IMG/VR virus record: IMGVR_UViG_2740892107_000010
Coordinates: 1 to 35,640 of that record
Source: a virus
Taxonomy: Duplodnaviria > Heunggongvirae > Uroviricota > Caudoviricetes
DNA: 35,640 nt
Strand: one strand, 5' to 3'
Shown here: piece by piece, positions 22,785 through 33,555 of the stretch
How positions within the stretch are numbered: position 1 is the stretch's first letter
How the letters are laid out: each line of letters begins with the position of its first letter
The notes under the pieces: generated by a model
What the model saw: only the letters and a program-made list of their open reading frames with translations
Database searches by the model: none
Told to the model about the DNA's origin: nothing
Translations under genes and position numbers: made by a program

Positions 22785-25403
22785 ATGAGCACGAAATTTA
22801 AAACCGTTATCACTACTGCCGGAGCCGCAAAGCTGGCTGCCGCCACTGTCCCCGGCGGGAAAAAAGTAAACCTGTCTGCAATGGCCGTGGGTGACGGTAA
22901 TGGCAAATTACCGGTGCCGGATGCCGGTCAGACGAAACTGGTGCATGAGGTCTGGCGTCACGCTCTGAATAAAGTCAGTGTGGATAATAAGAATAAAAAC
23001 TATATTGTGGCTGAACTGGTTGTTCCGCCAGAAGTGGGCGGCTTCTGGATGCGTGAGCTTGGTCTGTATGACGATGCCGGAACACTGATTGCGGTATCCA
23101 ACATGGCAGAAAGCTATAAGCCAGAACTGGCTGAAGGCTCCGGACGTGCGCAGACCTGCCGCATGGTTATTATTCTCAGCAACGTGGCGTCCGTTGAGCT
23201 GAGTATTGATGCCAGCACAGTGATGGCGACGCAGGATTACGTCGATGACAAAATCGCAGAGCATGAGCAGTCCCGCCGCCATCCTGACGCCACGCTGACA
23301 GAAAAAGGTTTTACTCAGTTAAGCAGTGCAACAAACAGCACCAGTGAAAAGCTGGCGGCAACGCCAAAAGCGGTCAAGGCTGCGAATGACAACGCAAATT
23401 CACGTCTGGCGAAAAATCAGAACGGTGCAGATATCCAGGATAAATCAGCTTTTCTGGACAATGTTGGCGTTACCAGCCTGACGTTTATGAAAAACAATGG
23501 CGAAATGCCGCTTGATGCTGATCTGAATACGTTTGGTCCTGTTAAGGCTTATTCAGGTATCTGGTCTAAAGCAACATCCACCAACGCAACACTGGAGAAA
23601 AATTTCCCGGAAGATAATGCTGTCGGTGTGCTTGAGGTTTTTGCTGCCGGCAATTTTGCAGGTACGCAACGCTTTACCACGAGAGACGGCAATGTATACA
23701 TGCGTAAACTCGCCAATAAGTGGAATGGCACTGATGGTCCGTGGGGCGTATGGCGTCACACTCAATCTGCTACCCGCCCTTTGAGTACGACTATAGACCT
23801 GAATACGCTTGGAGCCGCCGAGCATCTTGGTTTATGGCGTAACAGTAGCTCAGCTATAGCTTCATATGAACGCAATTATCCAGAGGAAGGCGGCTTTGCT
23901 CAGGGGATGCTTGAGATCCTCGAAGGCGGAAATTATGGAAGAACGCAACGTTATACCACTCGCCGTGGAAATATGTATGTCCGCTGTCTTGCGGCAAGCT
24001 GGGATGCATCAAATCCGCAGTGGGAACCGTGGTTAAGAGTCGGTCATCAGTCAGAGAGTCGTTATTACGAAGGTGATTTAAATGTTCTAACCGACCCCGG
24101 TATTTACAGTGTTACAGGAAAGGCAACAAACGGTCCGATGCTGGACACCGTTGGCGCGACACTACTTGGGATACTGGAAGTAATCAGACGTTTTGATGGT
24201 GTGTCTGTCTGGCAGCGTTACACAACCACAGGGAAATCAGAAACCACACAGGGACGCACTTTTGAGCGCGTCTACGCCGGGAGCAAATGGACCGAATGGC
24301 GAGAAGTATATAACTCCTTTTCGTTGCCTCTGAATCTGGGCATCGGTGGCGCAGTGGCAAAACTATCCAGTCTGGACTGGCAGACCTACGATTTTGTGCC
24401 GGGCAGTCTGATAACCGTGCGGCTTGATAACATGACCAACATTCCCGACGGTATGGACTGGGGCGTCATTGATGGCAACCTGATAAACATCGCAGTTGGT
24501 CCGAGTGATGATTCCGGTACGGGGCGCTCAATGCATGTATGGCGCAGCACTGTAAGTAAAGCGAACTACCGCTTTTTTATGGTGCGTATTTCAGGAAATC
24601 CGGGAAGCCGCACGATTACAGCAAGACGAGTACCAATCATTGACGAAGCCCAGACATGGGGCGCGAAACAGACATTCAGTGCTGGCCTTTCTGGTGAGCT
24701 GTCAGGCAATGCTGCTACAGCAACAAAGCTGAAAACGGCAAGGACAATTAACGGCGTAAAATTTGACGGCTCAGCAAATATTGAAGCGTTTCCGCCAGGT
24801 GTTCCGCTGCCGTGGCCATCAGATACACCACCTGCAGGCTATGCAATTATGCAGGGGCAGACGTTTGATAAGGCAGCATATCCGAAACTGGCTGTTGCCT
24901 ATCCTTCAGGTGTTATTCCTGATATGCGCGGCTGGACAATCAAGGGCAAACCCGCCAGTGGGCGTGCCGTATTGTCACAGGAGCAGGACGGGATTAAATC
25001 GCATACTCACAGCGCCAGTGCGTCAAATACGGACTTAGGAACGAAAACGACCAGTTCATTTGATTACGGGACAAAAACAGTCAGTACGTTTAACCACGGC
25101 ACAAAATCAACCAATACTTCTGGCAATCATACACATACCGTCGGTTTTGCTGTGAGCGTGCAATCAGGCGGTGCAGATTATGGTGTTCCGCGAAGTGATA
25201 AAGGTGCTACGACTACAAGTTCATCAGGCAATCATGCACATACAGTCAACATTGGAGCACATAACCATACTGTTGGTATTGGTGCACATTCACACACGGT
25301 TGCTATTGGCTCACACGGGCACTCTATTACCGTTAATGCTACAGGTAATACAGAAAATACCGTAAAAAACATCGCATTTAACTATATTGTGAGGCTTGCA
25401 TAA
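22785..25403 (+). CDS. H: Tail fiber protein (P2 gpH family)
   Basis: 872 aa; conserved fiber N-terminus; three internal repeated segments; C-terminus rich in H-x-H repeats. Confidence 0.9.
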
Positions 25404-25978
25404 TGGCTTTCAGAATGAGTGCAGAAGCACAAACTATCCGCGTATTTAATTTACTTGATGGAACCAATGAATTTATTGGGGAAAGTGAAGCGTATATTCC
25501 ACCGTATACAGGTCTGCCAGCAAACAGTACAGATATTGCACCACCTGATATTCCTGCTGGTTATGCAGCCGTTTTCAATGCAGATGAAATGAAATGGGAA
25601 CTGATGGAAGACCATCGCGGAAAGACCGTCTATGAAACGAAAACAGGAGCAGCCATTTATATTTCTGAACTTGGCGCATTACCTCCAGACGTGACAGCCA
25701 TTTCCCCGGAGGGGGATTATCAGAAATGGAACGGAAATGCGTGGGTGAATGATGAGAATGCAGAGCGTGATGCACTTGTCAGAGCCGCCGAATCTCAGAA
25801 GAGAGAACAAATCGCTTATGCGAGTAAGATCATTGCTACTTTGCAGGACGCTGTTGATTTAGATATAGCGACAGAAGACGAAAAGATAAACTTGACACGC
25901 TGGAAGAAGTACCGTGTATTGGTGAATCGTATTCAACCAGAAAATACCACCGATATTGATTGGCCAGAGCAACCATGA
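25403..25978 (+). CDS. G: Tail fiber assembly chaperone (P2 gpG family)
   Basis: 191 aa immediately after H. Confidence 0.8.
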
Positions 25979-25982
25979 AAAA

Positions 25983-26006
25983 AGGCGCTTACTGCGCCTT
26001 TTTTTG
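25983..26006. terminator. Bidirectional rho-independent terminator
   Basis: Stem aggcgc / gcgcct with loop ttact, A-run before and T7 after; overlaps the last codons of the convergent acetyltransferase gene. Confidence 0.65.
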
Positions 26007-26531
26007 TCTTATAACAGGAGTTATTTCGTTTATATATATTGAGTTGGAAGGAATAGATTTTGTTACCAGAGCATGAGCACCTATCGTAACGTTATCACCG
26101 ATATTAACTTGCCCACCAAGGATAGATGAATTGCAACCTATATCAACATTATCTCCAATAGTAATCATTGCCTCATTGGAAGGGGTTCTTAGACCAATAG
26201 TAACACCTTGCTTTATATGTAGATTTCTCCCTATCACACAGTTTTCTGTAATAACAATACCTGATAAGTGAGCAATATCTAAGCCTGGCCCTATACTCAC
26301 TGTTAAAGGAATCTCAACATTATAATCGCGATGAAGGTTTGCTCCGATGCGTTTGCCCACCCGGCGCATGAACCCTCCTCTGCTGTATAGATAGCTGGCC
26401 ACTCGCCACCAAAACATAAAGTGTTTTCGCCTATTGCGTCTGGTGCGAGTTAAAGCTTTTCTCCATGAAAACTCATGGTTTCCGCCTATAACTTCTATTT
26501 TTATACACTCCTTTAATGTTTTTATATCCAT
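25989..26531 (-). CDS. Hexapeptide-repeat (left-handed beta-helix) acetyltransferase, AT-rich cargo gene
   Basis: 180 aa with repeated [LIV]-G-x4 hexads (IGDNVDIG, VNIGDNVTIG, VIGRNLHIKQGVTIG); AT-rich; convergent with the tail-fiber operon. Confidence 0.75.
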   Translation of the reverse strand: MDIKTLKECIKIEVIGGNHEFSWRKALTRTRRNRRKHFMFWWRVASYLYSRGGFMRRVGKRIGANLHRDYNVEIPLTVSIGPGLDIAHLSGIVITENCVIGRNLHIKQGVTIGLRTPSNEAMITIGDNVDIGCNSSILGGQVNIGDNVTIGAHALVTKSIPSNSIYINEITPVIRQKKAQ

Positions 26532-26712
26532 GAATTTAATCTCTGCATTATCACTTACAATGTAATGGGGTGTTAATCTGACTGGGTGTGTAATGAACTC
26601 TCAAGAAATTATATTGTGGCTACTGGATGTATTCAATAAGATGGAACCAACATGTAATGTGCTTGAATGGTCCGATATGTTACGGACCATTTATCACAAG
26701 AAATTAAACTCT

Positions 26713-27207
26713 TTAAAATAAACTATGAACTGAGTTAGCCACGCTATTTAAAGACGAGGTTACCTTATCTTTGAAGCCAGTCAGCATATCGCTGAACGAT
26801 GAGGATTGCAGGCGCTCCCGCAAATCCTCATCACAGCGGTCAAGGGTCAGTGAAAACTCTATCTTTTTTGCCTTGCCGTAGCGATCAAACTCGGAGCGGG
26901 TCGTACTTGTGTCAGTCAGAACATACATGCCGTAAATCTGCCCGACGCCATCAATCAGAGGCCAGGGGCGCCCTGTATACGCCTGCGTGGTCAGCAGCGA
27001 CAGGGACACTTCGCCACCTGTGATTTCAGGATAAAGCACACCAGAAAGAACGACGCGATCATCACCTGCACCGATATACTGCCAGCTTGCTGAACGGTTA
27101 ACGCGCTCATTTTTCACATGCCGCCAGCTTTTGTTTTGCTGTAACTGCTGATGCGGCAATGTGCGCAGCTCAAAAACAAACATGCCGTAGATCATCATCA
27201 TGACCAT
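26713..27207 (-). CDS. U: Tail protein U (P2 gpU family)
   Basis: 164 aa immediately downstream of the tape-measure gene. Confidence 0.75.
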   Translation of the reverse strand: MVMMMIYGMFVFELRTLPHQQLQQNKSWRHVKNERVNRSASWQYIGAGDDRVVLSGVLYPEITGGEVSLSLLTTQAYTGRPWPLIDGVGQIYGMYVLTDTSTTRSEFDRYGKAKKIEFSLTLDRCDEDLRERLQSSSFSDMLTGFKDKVTSSLNSVANSVHSLF

Positions 27208-27213
27208 GACTCC

Positions 27214-30030
27214 TCAATCTTTATCGTAAAAACTGCCACGCCCGGCACGGGTGCGCCGTTCTATTTCTGCCCTGACCATTTCACCGACCAGTTTCGCCAG
27301 TTCGCGGGGATTCTGCGTAACAACGTTATGCAGATGAACATGAATTTCACCGCCAAATCCGGAGGCAACAGGCTCCCGGTTACGGGAAGTTGCAGGAACT
27401 GATGCCACTGGCGATCGTATGGCCTCCTCCACTGGGCGGGAGCTGGCCGTAACAACAGGGACCAGCGCCGGAGGCAGCGGAGCCGGGACCACGGGTGTGA
27501 TCTTAATTGCGGGGGCAGGCTTACTGACCTGCGCAATCTTCCGCTCCTGCCACTCCCCACGAACAGCAAGTGCGCGGGGCAGGTTCTTAAAGACAATATC
27601 GCCAGGGCCAATGCGTTTTTTCGTCTCATCAACCAGCTTACCTGTGTTATCAGCAATCTTGCTGAGTCTGCGTAGCGTACCGGTATTGCTGTCTGTGAGC
27701 GGTTTGTTGTCTTTGGGTTTATCGCCTCCGGTGCCATTGCCATTTTCCGCAGACTTCGGCGGATTGATTTTCGCAATGTCTCCCTGAAACAGAGCAACCT
27801 TATCCTGAAGAATGGCCGCACGCTGTGCGTCTTCGATTTTCTTTCTCGCCCTTTCCGCTTCATCCGGAAGCACACCGAGTTTTTCAAGTATCCACGCCAG
27901 CGTATCCAGCAACATTTTTGCAGGCGTCAGAACAAGCTGTAACGCGCCACCAAGAACGTTACCGAATACCTCGCCAGCACTGGCACATTTATCCAGCGTT
28001 TCCTTGCTGGACTCCATCGGTGACAACAGCGATTTAAACCAGTTAAACACCTGGCTGATCCCGCTTCCGATTGCGTCAAAAACAGGGCCAAACCGTTCAA
28101 AGGTTTCGCGCAACGGGGTCAGCCTTTCCATAATTCCGCTGAACACCCCGGCAAAAAATGCCCTGATGGGATCCCAATATTTCCAGATAAGAATGGCTGC
28201 TCCGGCAAGCGCAGCCACGATAAGACCAACCGGACTGAACAGCGCCCCGATAGCACCTCCCAGCAAAGAAACGGAACCCGTCACCATTCCCCATAGTGCT
28301 GGCAGGAGCCTGACAGCATTCATTGATCCGGTCAGGAGGGAAAAAACAAGACGCAGTTTTGCCAGTGGGCCAGCAAGCACACCAAGAGCAAGCGACAACG
28401 AGCCTACGGTTGCAGTCACTGCCAGCAGCGCACCGCCTGCAATCAGTAGCTGGCGCGTCAGTACAGGATGGGCCTGCGCCAGTGCCGTCACCTTTGAGAC
28501 CACCCGCGTTAGCCACTGCGTGACAGAACGCAGCGGACCGTCAACCAGATCACTGATGCGAATACGAAGACCTTCCCATGCGCTGTCGAGATTTTTCAGG
28601 TCGCCATCAAGGTTGTCGGCCATAACCTTTGCCGTGCGTTCAGCCTCACCGCGTGCGCCCTCAAGTTCTTTTCTCAGTTTGGGTAAGGAACCGTCACCCG
28701 CCGCATCAACGAGTGCCATAAACGATGTGAAAGCCTCTTCCCCGGCGATGTCCTTAAAGAAGGATACCCGGTCAACTTCCCCGTATTTGCGGGTAGCTTT
28801 ATAAAGGTCAGCCAGCAGATCTTCCATCGGGCGCATTTTGCCCCCGGCATCCGAGACGGACACGCCCAGCTCTTTCAGAGCTTCTGCCGCCGCCTTTGGC
28901 GGTGATGCCAGACGAGCCAGGCTGGCACGCATTGCCGTCCCGGCATCACTCCCCCTGATGCCCATATTCGCCAGTACGCCCGCCATCGCTGCGGCCTGCT
29001 CCAGCGATATTCCCAGCTTACCCGCCACCGGACCTGCATATTTCATGGTTTCGCCCAGTGCGCGAAGGTCAGTGTTGGTACGGGTAAACGCTGCGGTGAG
29101 TGTGTCACCGACCCGATCCATCTGGTCAGCAGAAAGGCCGAACTGCGTCAGGATATTTGAGCCAATATCTGCCGTCTCGCCGAGCTCCATACCGCCAGCC
29201 GTTGCCATGCTCAGCACGCCCGGAAGCGCAGCCTGAATGGCCTGCGGTGTGAAGCCAGCCATTGCAAGAAATGCCTGTCCACTGGCGGCATCGCCTGCAG
29301 TGAACTGAGTTTCAGAGCCAAGTTTTAACGCCTGCTCACGCAGCGCCTTAAACTGCGGGCTGTTTTTGTCGATTCGCGTCAGTGCCTGAACGCGGGACAT
29401 CTCTTTCCCGAACCCGATCGCAGGCTGCAAAAAACGCCCGGCAGCATAGCCGCCCGCCGCTGCCGCACCAATTGCCAGCGCACCACCTGTTTTCAGTTTT
29501 CCCGCAGTTTCCTGCGCGCGTGAATACCGCTCACGCGCCCGCGTTACACGCGCAAGCGCCTGCCGTTCGCGTTCAAGCTGGTTGTTGTACTGTTCGGTGC
29601 GTCTGATGGCCTGCTGGATGGTGTTATCGCTGCCTGTCAGGGAAATGCCGTGGCGTTTCAGCTCTCCGCCAAGCTCCCGCATTTTCTGAATTTCCCGTGC
29701 GCGCGATTCATTCAGGCGTTCAAGCCGGGTGCTTAACTGCTGCATCAGCTTTTGTTGTTTTTCGCTGAGCACTGTACCCGTGCGTTGTAACTGATTAAGG
29801 GCGTTAAGCTGGCGTCGTGCTTTCAATATGCCAGCATCCGCTTTACTGACAGCGTCACGGGCGCGCTCAAATGAACGCGCCTGACGCTCGAGATTTTTGA
29901 TCGCCCCCTGCGTTCGCTGGATGGAGTCACCAAACTGCCCCATCAGGCGGCGGGCGTTTTCGGCAGGCCGGGTCAGCCTGTCAACGGCGCTGAAAGCGAC
30001 CCGGATATCAAGAGTCTTCATTGTCTGCAT
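27214..30030 (-). CDS. T: Tail tape measure protein (P2 gpT family)
   Basis: About 940 aa, alanine/glycine-rich with hydrophobic central stretches; start uncertain among GTG 30057, ATG 30030, ATG 30021. Confidence 0.85.
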   Translation of the reverse strand: MQTMKTLDIRVAFSAVDRLTRPAENARRLMGQFGDSIQRTQGAIKNLERQARSFERARDAVSKADAGILKARRQLNALNQLQRTGTVLSEKQQKLMQQLSTRLERLNESRAREIQKMRELGGELKRHGISLTGSDNTIQQAIRRTEQYNNQLERERQALARVTRARERYSRAQETAGKLKTGGALAIGAAAAGGYAAGRFLQPAIGFGKEMSRVQALTRIDKNSPQFKALREQALKLGSETQFTAGDAASGQAFLAMAGFTPQAIQAALPGVLSMATAGGMELGETADIGSNILTQFGLSADQMDRVGDTLTAAFTRTNTDLRALGETMKYAGPVAGKLGISLEQAAAMAGVLANMGIRGSDAGTAMRASLARLASPPKAAAEALKELGVSVSDAGGKMRPMEDLLADLYKATRKYGEVDRVSFFKDIAGEEAFTSFMALVDAAGDGSLPKLRKELEGARGEAERTAKVMADNLDGDLKNLDSAWEGLRIRISDLVDGPLRSVTQWLTRVVSKVTALAQAHPVLTRQLLIAGGALLAVTATVGSLSLALGVLAGPLAKLRLVFSLLTGSMNAVRLLPALWGMVTGSVSLLGGAIGALFSPVGLIVAALAGAAILIWKYWDPIRAFFAGVFSGIMERLTPLRETFERFGPVFDAIGSGISQVFNWFKSLLSPMESSKETLDKCASAGEVFGNVLGGALQLVLTPAKMLLDTLAWILEKLGVLPDEAERARKKIEDAQRAAILQDKVALFQGDIAKINPPKSAENGNGTGGDKPKDNKPLTDSNTGTLRRLSKIADNTGKLVDETKKRIGPGDIVFKNLPRALAVRGEWQERKIAQVSKPAPAIKITPVVPAPLPPALVPVVTASSRPVEEAIRSPVASVPATSRNREPVASGFGGEIHVHLHNVVTQNPRELAKLVGEMVRAEIERRTRAGRGSFYDKD

Positions 30031-30537
30031 TCCCGCTGCGAAGTGCCGCCCGCTCACGCCAGCTAACCACTTCGCCGGGCGTCATCATGAAGATTTCGGC
30101 GGGCGACCAGTTAAAAATAACGGCAATATCTGCCACAAAGTCTTCTATGTGCTCAAAGCACACAACCGTGATCAGGCTTCCGTCGCCTGTTCGTTCTTCC
30201 CGCCAGAGTCCGCACCGCTCAAAAAATTTACGGCAACCACACATAACTGAATAAAGTCACGGGATGCCATTTTTTTGATCGTCACTTCATCCAGTCGCGG
30301 TGATGTCACGCGTGACAGCAGCGTAAACATGGATTCCGCTTTCAGATTCAGCACATCAGACAGCGACAAATCTCGCAGAGATCCAGCCTGCTCAATAGCC
30401 CCGGAGATCTCCACATACGTGATTTTTTCGCCGCCTCGCTCAATTGGTTGGGTAAGTTTTACGCCACGCTCACTGGTTTCTTTCACAGTGTCAGCAACTA
30501 CCGTGTTTTCGGTATCGATGTTTTTCGTCTCTTTCAT
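30008..30537 (-). CDS. Frameshift-extended tail chaperone E+E' (-1 programmed frameshift)
   Basis: The -1 frame is open from the slippery site (plus 30221-30227) to a stop at 30008; same arrangement as P2 E/E+E'. Confidence 0.65.
30172..30537 (-). CDS. E: Tail assembly chaperone E (P2 gpE family)
   Basis: 121 aa between the tube and tape-measure genes; contains in-frame slippery heptamer T-TTT-TTG. Confidence 0.75.
   Translation of the reverse strand: MKETKNIDTENTVVADTVKETSERGVKLTQPIERGGEKITYVEISGAIEQAGSLRDLSLSDVLNLKAESMFTLLSRVTSPRLDEVTIKKMASRDFIQLCVVAVNFLSGADSGGKNEQATEA
30221..30227 (-). other. Programmed -1 ribosomal frameshift slippery heptamer T_TTT_TTG
   Basis: Minus-strand sequence gta-aaT-TTT-TTG-agc phased as X-XXY-YYZ in the E frame. 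Confidence 0.65.
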
Positions 30538-30591
30538 CAGGAAACTCCTTTCAGTCAGAGGCGACGCACTGCGCCGCCTGCATATTACTTA

Positions 30592-31104
30592 TCAGCCAAG
30601 CCCAAGCGCGGAACGGATGCGATCGGGCACAATGTCCTTGCCGTCCTTCCGGTAAATGAAGTTCAGCAGGTCAATCTCCCACAACGGGCGATCGTTAACG
30701 CTCAGCTTGTAGTAGGTGTTTTTAATGGCGTAAGTGTGTGATGTGGCTTCGCCCTGTTTGGCTTCCCCCATATCAATTTCCGTCACACGTCCGCGCATTT
30801 CGACTTCATACAGGTCGCTTTCTGCATCGGTGTAGTATTCACCCGCAAAACGCAGCAGCGTGCCGTCAATCGTGCCGCCATACTTAAGGAACAGCTCACG
30901 AACTGCGCCCCCCATGACAAAGCTCGCATCAAGCGCGGAGTCGTCCAGGCCGAGATCAATACTTACCGCCCCCATCATGCCACCACCCCGGTAGCTGTCG
31001 GTTTTGCGCGTCAGCTTAGGCAGAGTGACGGACGTCACCTTACCCACTTCGTTTTCGCCATCCACAAACAGCGTAAAAAAGCGAAGATGTTTTGGCACAG
31101 CCAT
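30592..31104 (-). CDS. FII: Tail tube protein (P2 gpFII family)
   Basis: 170 aa directly after the sheath gene. Confidence 0.85.
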   Translation of the reverse strand: MAVPKHLRFFTLFVDGENEVGKVTSVTLPKLTRKTDSYRGGGMMGAVSIDLGLDDSALDASFVMGGAVRELFLKYGGTIDGTLLRFAGEYYTDAESDLYEVEMRGRVTEIDMGEAKQGEATSHTYAIKNTYYKLSVNDRPLWEIDLLNFIYRKDGKDIVPDRIRSALGLG

Positions 31105-32288
31105 CAGGCACCTCCCAGCACCGCAAATGCGGGTTCAAAGTATTCATCAGTAAACGTCTGGTAAAGCTCCATGTCTTCCAGTGGCGGAACGGGCGTATAT
31201 TTGTAGCGAATACGCACACGCCCCTGACGTAAATCCGTGGTGCTGTTATCCACCACGTCATACCAGCACTCCGCGCCAATCAGTTTCCCGGCAGTAACCA
31301 GTGAATCCAGTTTTGCCCTGACGGCACTGATAACATCCTTCACGTTCGCGGGTGTTAATGGACTGTCGATGGTTTCAAACTGCGCTTCCGCAATCGTGTC
31401 AGCCAGTACCTGTGCGGTACGGGTATACACCTCAAAGATGTAGGCGTTCGTTTCCGGTGTGCGGTTGCCCCAGAAACGGAACCCGTTGCGACGAATAATG
31501 GTCGTGATTTCTTTGTTGTTGAGGCTGTTGGCATCGCTGTCTTCGGCCTGTAACGACCAGAACACATGCCTGGACATCCCCAGCACATTTTTAACCGGAA
31601 CGTTGGACAGCGATTTGTGCCAGCCCTGCTCATGGTCAATGTACGCACGAAGGCCGCACGCATAGGCAGGCGCGGGGAACGTTTCGTTTTCGCCACTTTT
31701 CGGGTTGTAGGCGATGAAGTCCGGCCACAAGAGCATCACTTCACGTTCGTTGAATTTCTGGCGGTAGGTAATCGCTTCAGCCATCGTGTTACAGCCGTGA
31801 CATGAGGCATACACAAACGCGCGCAGTTTACCCGCTATCACGCACAGGGATTTTATTACCGCCTCCGTGTCCAGCTCCGGCGCGGCCAGAATACGCGGAC
31901 GGTATCCGATGCTTTCATCCTGCTCTGCAACAAGCAGCGCATACATCCCCGTATAGCTGCCGTCATCCTCAGAACCACCGATAACCAGTTGATCCTGCGT
32001 CTTTCCGTCTTCTTCTTTGTGTTCAGCCACGCGAACGACGATCACCTTTGTGCTCACCTGGTCTGCGATGGCCTTAAGCGCACGATAAAGCGTCCCCGTT
32101 GTCCCGCATTTTCCCAGCACGTCATTGACGCGGGTCAGCAGTGTAGGCTTGTTCAGCGGGAACAGCTTCGCGTCCGCATCATCCGCCGTTGCCACGATAC
32201 CGATAACGCTGGAATCAACATCGTTAATCGCTGTTACCAGGTCGGTATTTTCCGTAACACGGGCACCATGAAAACGAGTTTCACTCAT
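31104..32288 (-). CDS. FI: Tail sheath protein (P2 gpFI family)
   Basis: 394 aa, size and neighbours match P2 FI. Confidence 0.9.
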   Translation of the reverse strand: MSETRFHGARVTENTDLVTAINDVDSSVIGIVATADDADAKLFPLNKPTLLTRVNDVLGKCGTTGTLYRALKAIADQVSTKVIVVRVAEHKEEDGKTQDQLVIGGSEDDGSYTGMYALLVAEQDESIGYRPRILAAPELDTEAVIKSLCVIAGKLRAFVYASCHGCNTMAEAITYRQKFNEREVMLLWPDFIAYNPKSGENETFPAPAYACGLRAYIDHEQGWHKSLSNVPVKNVLGMSRHVFWSLQAEDSDANSLNNKEITTIIRRNGFRFWGNRTPETNAYIFEVYTRTAQVLADTIAEAQFETIDSPLTPANVKDVISAVRAKLDSLVTAGKLIGAECWYDVVDNSTTDLRQGRVRIRYKYTPVPPLEDMELYQTFTDEYFEPAFAVLGGA

Positions 32289-32445
32289 AGCTTCAGCCCC
32301 TTGTATCCGTTAAATGATTCGGCAACAATCATCACCCACCACGCGCGTAATCTCACCCCTGCGCCGTTCTCCCGCCACGGCGACAACAAAAAGCAGTAAC
32401 CCCCTCCGCACGCACATGCGACCATGCTGCACAGGGAGGGAGCAG

Positions 32446-33555
32446 ATGACCGACACCACCATGCAATTGCTCAGTCAGAGCACAGACCCCGTAAAAATGC
32501 CGGATTTTGATATTCTCGCGGAGGGTAAAACGCTGTCCGGCGTGGCAGAGCGCCTGATGAGCCTGTCGCTGACCGACAACCGGGGATTTGAGGCAGACCA
32601 GCTCACCATCACGCTGGATGATGCGGATGGTCAGTTGCAGCTACCGCCACGGGGCGCGCGCCTGACGGTTCTCATTGGCTGGAAAGGCGAACCGCTGACA
32701 GAAAAAGGGTCTTACATTGTTGATGAAATCGCACACGAAGGACCGCCAGACAGGCTGACTGTTTCAGCCAGAAGCGCAGATTTTCGGGATGAATTTAACG
32801 TTAAACGTGAAGTGTCCTGGCATGATGTGACCGTTGAGCGCGTGGTATCCGCCATCGCTCATCGGTATGGTCTGAAACCGCAAATCAGCGAAATGCTGAT
32901 GGATATTGAAATCGACCACGCCGACCAGACCGAAGAAAGCGACATGTCCTTCCTTACGCGCATGGCGGAAATGCTGGGCGCAATCACTACGGTAAAAAGC
33001 GGTAATCTGTTATTCATCATGCCAGGTGGTGGCGTGAACGCACAGGGCCAGCCGTTGCCCTCGTTCGCCATTACACGCAGCAGCGGCGATCGCCATCAGT
33101 TCCGTATTGCTGACCGCGAGGCGTATACGGGGGTACGCGCCTACTGGCTTGATCTTAATTACGGGAAAAAGAAAAAAGTCAGCGTGAAACGCCGTAAACC
33201 GCCAAAACCCAAAAAGGAGAAAAGCAGCAGCCGTGAAGGTGATTATATGGAAGGCGCGGAAGGCAATGTGTTTGTGTTACGCAAGACTTATCAGAACGAG
33301 CAGGCAGCAAGACGCGCAGCGGCGGCAAAGTGGCAGCAACTACAACGCGGAGCCGCATCATTCTCCATCACGCTGGCGCGTGGACGTGCAGAACTCTATC
33401 CCGAAATGCATGGCACGGTGACAGGCTTCAAAAGTGACATCGACAATCAGGACTGGATTATTGCAAAAGCCGAGCACACCATTGATAACAGCGGCTTTAC
33501 CACGCAGCTTGAGCTTGAGGCAAAAATCCCGGAATGGATAGCAGAAACAGCGTGA
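32446..33555 (+). CDS. D: Tail protein D (P2 late control gene D family)
   Basis: About 369 aa from ATG 32446 with GGGAGGG ribosome-binding site; the longer upstream ORF start at 32314 looks like an artefact. Confidence 0.8.
   Translation: MTDTTMQLLSQSTDPVKMPDFDILAEGKTLSGVAERLMSLSLTDNRGFEADQLTITLDDADGQLQLPPRGARLTVLIGWKGEPLTEKGSYIVDEIAHEGPPDRLTVSARSADFRDEFNVKREVSWHDVTVERVVSAIAHRYGLKPQISEMLMDIEIDHADQTEESDMSFLTRMAEMLGAITTVKSGNLLFIMPGGGVNAQGQPLPSFAITRSSGDRHQFRIADREAYTGVRAYWLDLNYGKKKKVSVKRRKPPKPKKEKSSSREGDYMEGAEGNVFVLRKTYQNEQAARRAAAAKWQQLQRGAASFSITLARGRAELYPEMHGTVTGFKSDIDNQDWIIAKAEHTIDNSGFTTQLELEAKIPEWIAETA

Follow-up and report, generated by a model that had tools for sequence, protein, structure and literature searches.

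The locus

The subject of this study is a small gene in a viral DNA stretch of 35,640 nucleotides (nt) (IMG/VR record IMGVR_UViG_2740892107_000010, positions 1 to 35,640; hereafter the window), which represents a P88-like Escherichia prophage (genus Xuanwuvirus, family Peduoviridae) of the P2 family. Its positions 11000-35640 are 95-96.5% identical to the Escherichia phages PhiR44_2, Chuche and P88 across 78-85% of their length. The gene (25989-26531, minus strand, ATG start) encodes a 180-residue acetyltransferase of the PHROG 2154 family, predicted to be soluble, with a CysE-like left-handed β-helix (LbetaH) and the putative catalytic pair E73/H88. It is prophage cargo, very probably misnamed in the databases, and we lean towards a cell-envelope glycan as its substrate.

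The gene is flanked by two tail genes. On one side lies G (25403-25978, plus strand; Pfam Caudo_TAP, E = 1.8e-37), which encodes a tail-fibre assembly chaperone of the P2 gpG/lambda Tfa type and follows the tail-fibre gene H (22785-25403, plus strand). On the other side, and upstream with respect to its own strand, lies the tail gene U (26713-27207, minus strand; Pfam Phage_P2_GpU, E = 1.2e-38), which is preceded by the tape-measure gene T (27214-30057, minus strand); H and T were identified from the list of open reading frames (ORFs) and by family searches. The original prediction for this DNA had placed the gene at the junction between tail fibre and sheath. This was mistaken, because the block from FI to U is inverted in P88-like phages: annotated P2 loci have the order G, fun(Z), FI, FII, E, T, U, D, whereas in the window, as in P88, the FI-FII-E-T-U tail block (26713-32288) stands in reverse orientation. 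By comparison with P88, this block also includes the ORFs that match its tail tube gene (30592-31104, minus strand; labelled 'head closure' there) and its tail sheath gene (31104-32288, minus strand). The ORF at the D position (32314-33555) is on the plus strand. Likewise, the gene had been described as lying on the opposite strand, which is true with respect to H and G but not to T and U; it shares the strand of the latter and begins 181 nt after the stop codon of U. Since it is codirectional with the T-U late genes, it does not count as an opposite-strand unit that is cleanly set apart.

Fold, family and active site

The assignment as a hexapeptide-repeat acetyltransferase stands, as the 180-residue protein matches the Pfam family Hexapep (PF00132) with 31.8 bits at a curated cutoff of 27. 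The profile search that had been recommended for its subclassification yields an almost full-length match to PHROG 2154 (E = 3.1e-61, residues 2-178 of 180), a family without assigned function. Within NCBIfam, models of the EpsC/CysE type match best (E = 2.4e-23 and 6e-20), but every one of the relevant scores falls below its curated cutoff: 82.7 bits against 150 for EpsC, 71.9 against 210.65 for CysE (TIGR01172), 42.2 against 397 for full-length CysE (NF008349) and 66 against 196 for WcaB. A SATase_N domain (PF06426) was not detected with Pfam.

Structurally, the protein is nonetheless closest to CysE. The best AlphaFold2 model, with a predicted local distance difference test (pLDDT) score of 93.7, has four N-terminal helices followed by a left-handed β-helix, and its top Foldseek matches are CysE structures, with E-values down to 5e-10. 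The 60 best of 124 profile matches to the PDB are of the CysE, GlmU, LacA/Maa and LpxD types. When the family profile is aligned to CysE structures, E73 coincides with the catalytic Asp and H88 with the catalytic His, but Ala87 occupies the position of the serine-binding Asp, and the Arg-His of the 'DRHP' motif is missing, a non-conserved loop standing in its place. We take it from CysE of E. coli and H. influenzae that the Asp beside the catalytic His binds the amino group of serine and that the Arg-His of 'DRHP' binds its carboxylate. Given the scores below the CysE cutoffs, the missing serine-binding residues and the missing SATase_N domain, the ubiquitous database name 'serine acetyltransferase' is very probably a misannotation.

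The putative catalytic pair (E/D, H) is retained in 44 of the 55 full-length family members, and its two positions covary perfectly: in the remaining 11, among them P0036 and sequences from loci L087-L123, a residue other than E/D is combined with Tyr. This pair-less subclade includes the commonest E. coli allele, which represents a cluster of 783 sequences and, in P88-like prophages, is likewise found between G and U.

The protein lacks a hydrophobic segment (maximum Kyte-Doolittle mean over 19 residues, 1.46), so it should be cytoplasmic, and the multi-pass membrane domain of the acyltransferase-3 family (PF01757) was not found in its 180 residues. Its N-terminal part carries the family-specific motif FSWRKAL...FWWR.A.YLY.

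Start choice, selection and occurrence

In the databases, this protein appears in two lengths on identical DNA, as a 180-residue form on 103 contigs and as a 126-residue form on 183. The shorter form starts at an internal ATG (Met55, 26367-26369, minus strand) with an AGGAGG sequence (26374-26379) 6 nt upstream. We considered a frameshift as the cause of the 126-residue entries and rejected it, as they reflect an alternative start call on the same DNA. The 54 N-terminal residues that the shorter form lacks include family-invariant positions (E13, F21, W23, F40, W41 and R43), and we therefore regard the 180-residue form as real.

The gene is under strong purifying selection. In comparison with two 75%-identical relatives, the proportion of synonymous differences (pS) is 0.86-0.90, i.e. 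saturated, while that of nonsynonymous differences (pN) is 0.15; between the two relatives themselves, the ratio of nonsynonymous to synonymous substitution rates (dN/dS) is 0.045.

The 103 contigs with the exact protein are named as E. coli or multispecies Escherichia, and many of them belong to draft assemblies; its 90% cluster also includes proteins of E. marmotae and Escherichia sp. E4930. At every place returned by a look-up of the exact protein, the gene stands in the context T-U-acetyltransferase-G-H. Clustering at 50% identity gives only 11 representatives at E <= 1e-30, so the narrow family is small; it is essentially limited to Enterobacterales. When a genome collection was scanned with the family alignment, generic LbetaH proteins dominated the hits and only three true family members were among them; we reused the distant hits for the survey of genomic contexts described below.

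The cassette and its signals

The DNA resembles that of P2- and P88-like phages up to about 25965 and again from about 26728, within the last five codons of U. Based on this comparison, the cassette-specific DNA extends over approximately 25966-26727. Since the right-hand breakpoint lies inside these last five codons (26713-26727), the C-terminal tail of U differs from those of P88 and PhiR44_2. The region had been called AT-rich, and it is: the GC content is 39.0% in the acetyltransferase gene and 37.8% in the cassette, compared to 51.9% in the window. In 5,426 complete RefSeq E. coli genomes, the cassette DNA has zero matches, and no direct or inverted repeats were found at its flanks that would point to a transposon or an invertase site. 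A scan of 25900-26800 for tandem repeats and a tRNA scan of the region were also negative. The cassette, taken as acetyltransferase plus chaperone, occurs in identical form with an H fibre of either 872 or 595 residues in different assemblies (L173, L175 and L176 compared with L172, L174 and L177), which shows that variation in the fibre body is not tied to the cassette.

G and the acetyltransferase gene converge on a common intrinsic terminator (25978-26004, both strands), as had been anticipated. Its sequence, AAAAAAGGCGC-TTACT-GCGCCTTTTTT, forms perfect arms of 11 nt (25978-25988 and 25994-26004) around a loop of 5 nt, and on the acetyltransferase strand the hairpin is followed by a U-run. 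It folds with -18.0 kcal/mol on the plus and -15.1 kcal/mol on the minus strand (z = -6.1 and -4.6, respectively), and none of 200 shuffled sequences was as stable. The stop codon of the acetyltransferase gene (25989-25991) lies in the loop, which makes the terminator bidirectional and common to both genes. A simple terminator scan did not call this site, probably because the A/T runs pair with each other and thereby consume the T tail.

A second stable hairpin (26666-26691, minus strand), predicted by folding, lies 22-47 nt past the stop codon of U. It has a stem of 9 bp (AATGGTCCG/CGGACCATT) and a loop of 8 nt, and folds with -18.2 kcal/mol on the minus and -20.1 kcal/mol on the plus strand (z = -4.8 and -5.7). 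The original prediction had noted a hairpin near 26667-26691, and the structure itself is real, with a z-score of about -5, but it lacks a U-run on either strand. P88 and PhiR44_2 have a canonical terminator after U at the equivalent place.

The best promoter-like site upstream of the acetyltransferase gene (26636-26608, minus strand) consists of TTGAAT and TATAAT at a distance of 17 nt, with 10 of 12 consensus matches; a second candidate (26547-26576, minus strand) combines TTAACA and GATAAT at 18 nt. Five such sites were observed in the region and 3.7 +/- 1.8 in shuffled sequence. Since this count is not above the shuffled background, the TTGAAT-TATAAT site is a lead rather than a result.

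A 42-codon ORF had also been pointed out between the gene and U. It is located at 26593-26721 on the plus strand, where it overlaps the last 9 nt of U, the hairpin and the promoter-like site. Its product has no match in Pfam, NCBIfam, PHROG or PADLOC, and its only homolog among the loci fetched is in a near-identical copy of the same prophage. As ORFs of this size are common noise here (53 ORFs of at least 35 residues in 6.5 kb), we judge it to be non-coding. An Rfam scan of the region returned nothing above the gathering scores, only weak matches to terminator-like small RNAs and a sub-threshold match to IS009. The latter (25800-25944, plus strand; E = 5e-6, 34 bits for a gathering score of 117) falls within the chaperone coding sequence and probably does not indicate an RNA gene but reflects similarity to a remnant of a prophage chaperone gene.

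The slot between G and U

What lies between these two genes differs from phage to phage. PhiR44_2 has nothing inserted there, while in P88 (L002:2802-4950) the slot holds an alternative fibre C-terminus and a chaperone gene on the opposite strand, along with a DNA invertase gene; this is an invertible host-range switch of the Mu/P1 style. In many genomes of Shiga-toxin-producing E. coli O103, O45 and O121, the slot contains a 190-residue acetyltransferase, 37% identical to that of the window, and in many IMG/VR prophages with U and T upstream it contains a third allele, which is approximately 50% identical. Considering that the gene is absent from phages as closely related as PhiR44_2 and P88 (about 96% identical), deviates in base composition and has its own terminator, it is prophage cargo, in line with the moron of the original prediction.

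The position next to a fibre chaperone gene recurs on other phage backbones. In the two 75%-identical relatives, which reside in different phages, the chaperone and acetyltransferase genes converge with a gap of approximately 11 nt, as they do in the window, while the upstream genes differ: one has DinI and an 89-residue ORF, the other DoxX. The same convergent layout is found in the Hafnia phage yong2 and on about 289 plasmids, mostly from E. coli, for which the 15 listed records have the size of P1-like phage-plasmids (90-102 kb). One P1-like case, JL22, has been described in the literature, where the role of the acetyltransferase gene is stated as unknown. Among 80 viral loci from IMG/VR, a redundant collection in which E. 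coli predominates, the downstream neighbor is convergent in 61 of the 76 for which one was called. Genes of the Caudo_TAP family account for 23 of the 50 distinct downstream neighbors and cover most of the loci, as the redundant groups are of this type.

Gene neighborhoods of cellular relatives

For 14 cellular relatives with 30-45% identity, the neighboring genes mainly encode glycosyltransferases of the GT1, GT2 and GT4 families, Wzy_C proteins and nucleotide-sugar enzymes. One of the three most informative contexts is that of a full-length family member in Leminorella grimontii (L006:1502-7848), which is 45% identical and shares the N-terminal motifs and the E/H pair. It is the last gene of the waa operon for the lipopolysaccharide core, after genes for a WaaP-like kinase, a GT4 glycosyltransferase, WaaI, WaaY and WaaZ, and it is convergent with the gene for the O-antigen ligase RfaL. 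The NCBIfam cutoffs are exceeded by WaaI, WaaZ and RfaL, and WaaY has a strong Pfam match. The corresponding place at the end of the operon is taken by waaK in Salmonella.

A related combination is found in viruses. At four viral loci (L140:5585-6493, L149, L156 and L157), the next gene after that of the acetyltransferase, in the same orientation, is distantly waaZ-like; its product matches TIGR04437 with E = 1.7e-22, which is below the cutoff, and is 27-28% identical to Leminorella WaaZ. WaaZ is the 3-deoxy-D-manno-oct-2-ulosonic acid (Kdo) III transferase of the lipopolysaccharide core. The pair suggests a two-gene phage cassette that might modify this core.

In Proteus mirabilis (L182:4177-6545), a 47%-identical homolog is located at the edge of the O-antigen locus, in the order secB-gpsA-cysE-acetyltransferase-GT2, and apparently forms an operon with the GT2 glycosyltransferase gene. 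The adjacent cysE encodes a true CysE, with a score of 548 bits and a SATase_N domain, and the homolog corresponds to the second 'serine acetyltransferase' of Yu et al. (PMC5560731). Taken together, these contexts favor a surface glycan over a small molecule as the probable substrate.

Possible functions

We consider it somewhat more plausible than the contrary that the protein is a cytoplasmic glycan O-acetyltransferase, probably acting on lipopolysaccharide, which serves lysogenic conversion or receptor masking. In the mechanism that we envisage, it would be a soluble, probably trimeric, acetyl-CoA-dependent enzyme with a CysE/WcaB-like left-handed β-helix, in which the Glu73/His88 pair would act as the general base. 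Its substrate would be a sugar of a cell-envelope glycan intermediate, probably the lipopolysaccharide core or the O-unit, and acetylation would take place during glycan assembly at the cytoplasmic face of the membrane. As cargo that occupies the variable position behind G, the gene may be expressed in the lysogen from its own promoter, possibly with additional read-through from the T-U late genes. The altered surface structure would then be recognized differently by phages, of its own kind or others, and by the host, resulting in lysogenic conversion or receptor masking.

Several points weigh against this interpretation. The substrate cannot be read from the acetyltransferase sequence, as the original prediction fairly cautioned; the literature refers to family members as 'serine acetyltransferase' of unknown role, and we found no experiment on any of them. 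Only one of the five AlphaFold2 models is confident, the other four having pLDDT scores of 63-73, and 11 of the 55 family members lack both residues of the catalytic pair (E/D73 replaced by T, K, I or V, and H88 by Y). The promoter of the gene is a consensus match alone. Yu et al. saw the Proteus homolog in all 60 serotypes and doubted that it has a role in O-antigen synthesis (PMC5560731). Moreover, a subclade with 60% identity is encoded in a chromosomal cassette of three genes, for a 368-residue protein without family match, the acetyltransferase and a major facilitator superfamily (MFS) transporter, which hints at a small-molecule role (L184:3778-6855, on Intestinirhabdus-type contigs, and L186). 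On one contig of this subclade, the three-gene cassette stands directly beside a P2-like integrase gene.

The linkage to the chaperone gene is to be read with similar caution. The 75%-identical acetyltransferases adjoin chaperones that are only 19-32% identical to G of the window, while the 37%-identical one adjoins a chaperone that is 60% identical. Without co-divergence, the linkage may reflect a permissive insertion slot instead of a functional pairing with a given fibre. We therefore dropped the idea that fibre, chaperone and acetyltransferase form one specificity module; the overall Mantel correlation of r = 0.77 owes its height to redundant E. coli loci. What we claim is a linkage in position, not the co-inheritance of such a module.

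Of the other explanations, a defense or counter-defense enzyme fares best, though we regard it as unlikely. Such an enzyme would have a non-glycan target, for instance a component of an incoming phage, a signaling nucleotide or a host factor, and would protect the lysogen as fun(Z) does against T5. The gene has the topology and the slot of fun(Z), whose annotation states that it blocks the growth of T5, and at least three divergent alleles (37-52% identical between types) alternate in the G/U slot of P88-like prophages, a turnover that is typical of arms-race cargo. P2-like phages are also known to carry hotspots of defense genes (PMC9122126). On the other hand, the acetyltransferase has no match to the PADLOC-DB defense models at E <= 1 and no similarity to Fun(Z), and its cellular relatives are found in glycan loci and not in defense islands. 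Two papers on P2 hotspots, of which PMC9122126 is one, make no mention of an acetyltransferase; in 12 passages of the 2022 hotspot paper, matches to 'fun' are ordinary words such as 'function', and none refers to fun(Z).

We see a rather slim chance that the gene is a late-expressed helper of the phage cycle. Transcribed with T and U during lytic growth, it would either acetylate a part of the virion or fibre, or modify receptors on the dying cell and thereby keep the progeny from being trapped on debris. The codirectional arrangement with T-U fits this idea, all the more as the 181 nt after U contain only the hairpin without U-run, at a place where P88 and PhiR44_2 have a canonical terminator. 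Distant homologs in Streptococcus thermophilus phages, considered by position alone, are located at 16.6-17.6 kb of genomes of approximately 31-35 kb. In most other phages, however, the gene points towards the structural genes, in convergent orientation, and comes after accessory genes such as those for DinI, DoxX and RecA, and the existence of closely related viable phages without the acetyltransferase gene means that it is not needed for morphogenesis.

It is improbable, in our view, that the database name is right after all, with the protein acetylating serine, or else another small molecule, and thereby promoting cysteine or thiol metabolism or the production or export of an acetylated metabolite. 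The EpsC/CysE-type models as best NCBIfam matches, CysE as the nearest solved structure, the MFS transporter beside one subclade and the position of the Proteus homolog directly after a true cysE all agree with this explanation, but the scores are far below the CysE cutoffs (71.9 against 210.65 and 42.2 against 397), the SATase_N domain is missing, Ala87 replaces the serine-binding Asp and the Arg-His of 'DRHP' is absent. In Proteus, the coexistence with a bona fide CysE (548 bits) argues for a different job of the family member. Finally, some cluster members are split or short calls (59, 98 and 110-126 residues) and one subclade lacks the catalytic pair, but an inert or decaying passenger without current function is very improbable given the strong purifying selection, the intact ORF, the origin of the 126-residue calls in start choices of gene callers on identical DNA and the presence of the exact protein on 103 contigs, with the same context at every place returned.

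Beyond the single gene, glycan O-acetylation can be extended to a broader proposal, which we put forward tentatively and with more doubt than conviction. PHROG 2154 might represent a widespread, unrecognized class of lysogenic-conversion genes in Enterobacterales prophages and phage-plasmids, encoding soluble CysE-like O-acetyltransferases that act on cytoplasmic intermediates of the lipopolysaccharide core or O-unit, some of them with a phage WaaZ-like partner, and that mask the receptors of P2-, P1- and lambda-type fibres. Its alleles would turn over rapidly in the place after the chaperone gene, and the Thr/Tyr subclade would have a different chemistry or a non-catalytic role.

The acetyltransferase gene and its family are already present in the databases, under the wrong name, and have been noticed in passing in the literature; moreover, LbetaH acetyltransferase cargo beside receptor-binding or tail-fibre genes is an expected and ordinary feature of prophages. 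What we add is the case against the CysE name, the recurring placement after chaperone genes in phages of different types, the connection with lipopolysaccharide loci and the pair-less subclade. If the protein does acetylate lipopolysaccharide, many E. coli lineages would have their surface chemistry altered by a prophage gene that is small and very common. This would have a bearing on serotyping, phage host range, the matching of phages in therapy and immune recognition, with related alleles in Shiga-toxin-producing O103, O45 and O121 strains, and it would correct a systematic 'serine acetyltransferase' misannotation that has led authors to speculate on cysteine metabolism.

Comparison with known systems

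The closest functional parallel is NeuO. Its gene adjoins a phage receptor-binding gene, that of the endosialidase tailspike. NeuO is encoded by the E. coli K1 prophage CUS-3 and is an LbetaH O-acetyltransferase that acetylates the polysialic acid of the K1 capsule, thereby altering a surface polysaccharide built by host genes (PMC3046976). Both proteins are prophage-encoded, soluble acetyl-CoA O-acetyltransferases of the LbetaH type with a catalytic His, which is putative in the window protein. They differ in subfamily, as the 60 best of the 124 profile matches do not include a PDB chain named NeuO, and in the phase-variable heptanucleotide repeats at the 5' end of neuO, which encode an N-terminal heptad domain and have no counterpart in the window gene, which is free of tandem repeats. 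Furthermore, the substrate of NeuO is established, whereas that of the window protein is proposed from genomic context.

With CysE, WcaB and EpsC, its best matches in sequence and structure, the window protein shares the succession of N-terminal helices and LbetaH domain and an aligned pair of an acidic residue and a His. It differs from CysE in its shortened N-terminal domain, which does not correspond to SATase_N, and in the absence of serine-binding residues, and from all three in scoring below every curated cutoff and in having its own N-terminal motif.

The original prediction likened the position to that of Z/fun in P2. The topology agrees: in both phages, G and a terminator are followed by a convergent, non-essential cargo gene, which in P2 is annotated as a lysogenic-conversion gene. 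The far neighbor does not, being FI (sheath) in P2 and U in the window phage, and a comparison of the proteins, of 528 residues in Fun(Z) and 180 in the window, found no similarity and hence no sign of homology.

Lastly, acetyltransferases of the acyltransferase-3 type, such as Oac of Sf6, are phage-borne enzymes that acetylate lipopolysaccharide and block adsorption, and their genes are often found next to those for fibres or tailspikes. In the Serratia phage BZS1, for example, a membrane acetyltransferase gene lies beside the tail-fibre/tailspike genes in opposite orientation (PMC7556043). A shared role in surface acetylation is what we propose for the window protein, but the Oac-type enzymes are integral membrane proteins that act after export of the glycan, whereas the window protein is a soluble LbetaH protein and would therefore have to act on cytoplasmic intermediates.

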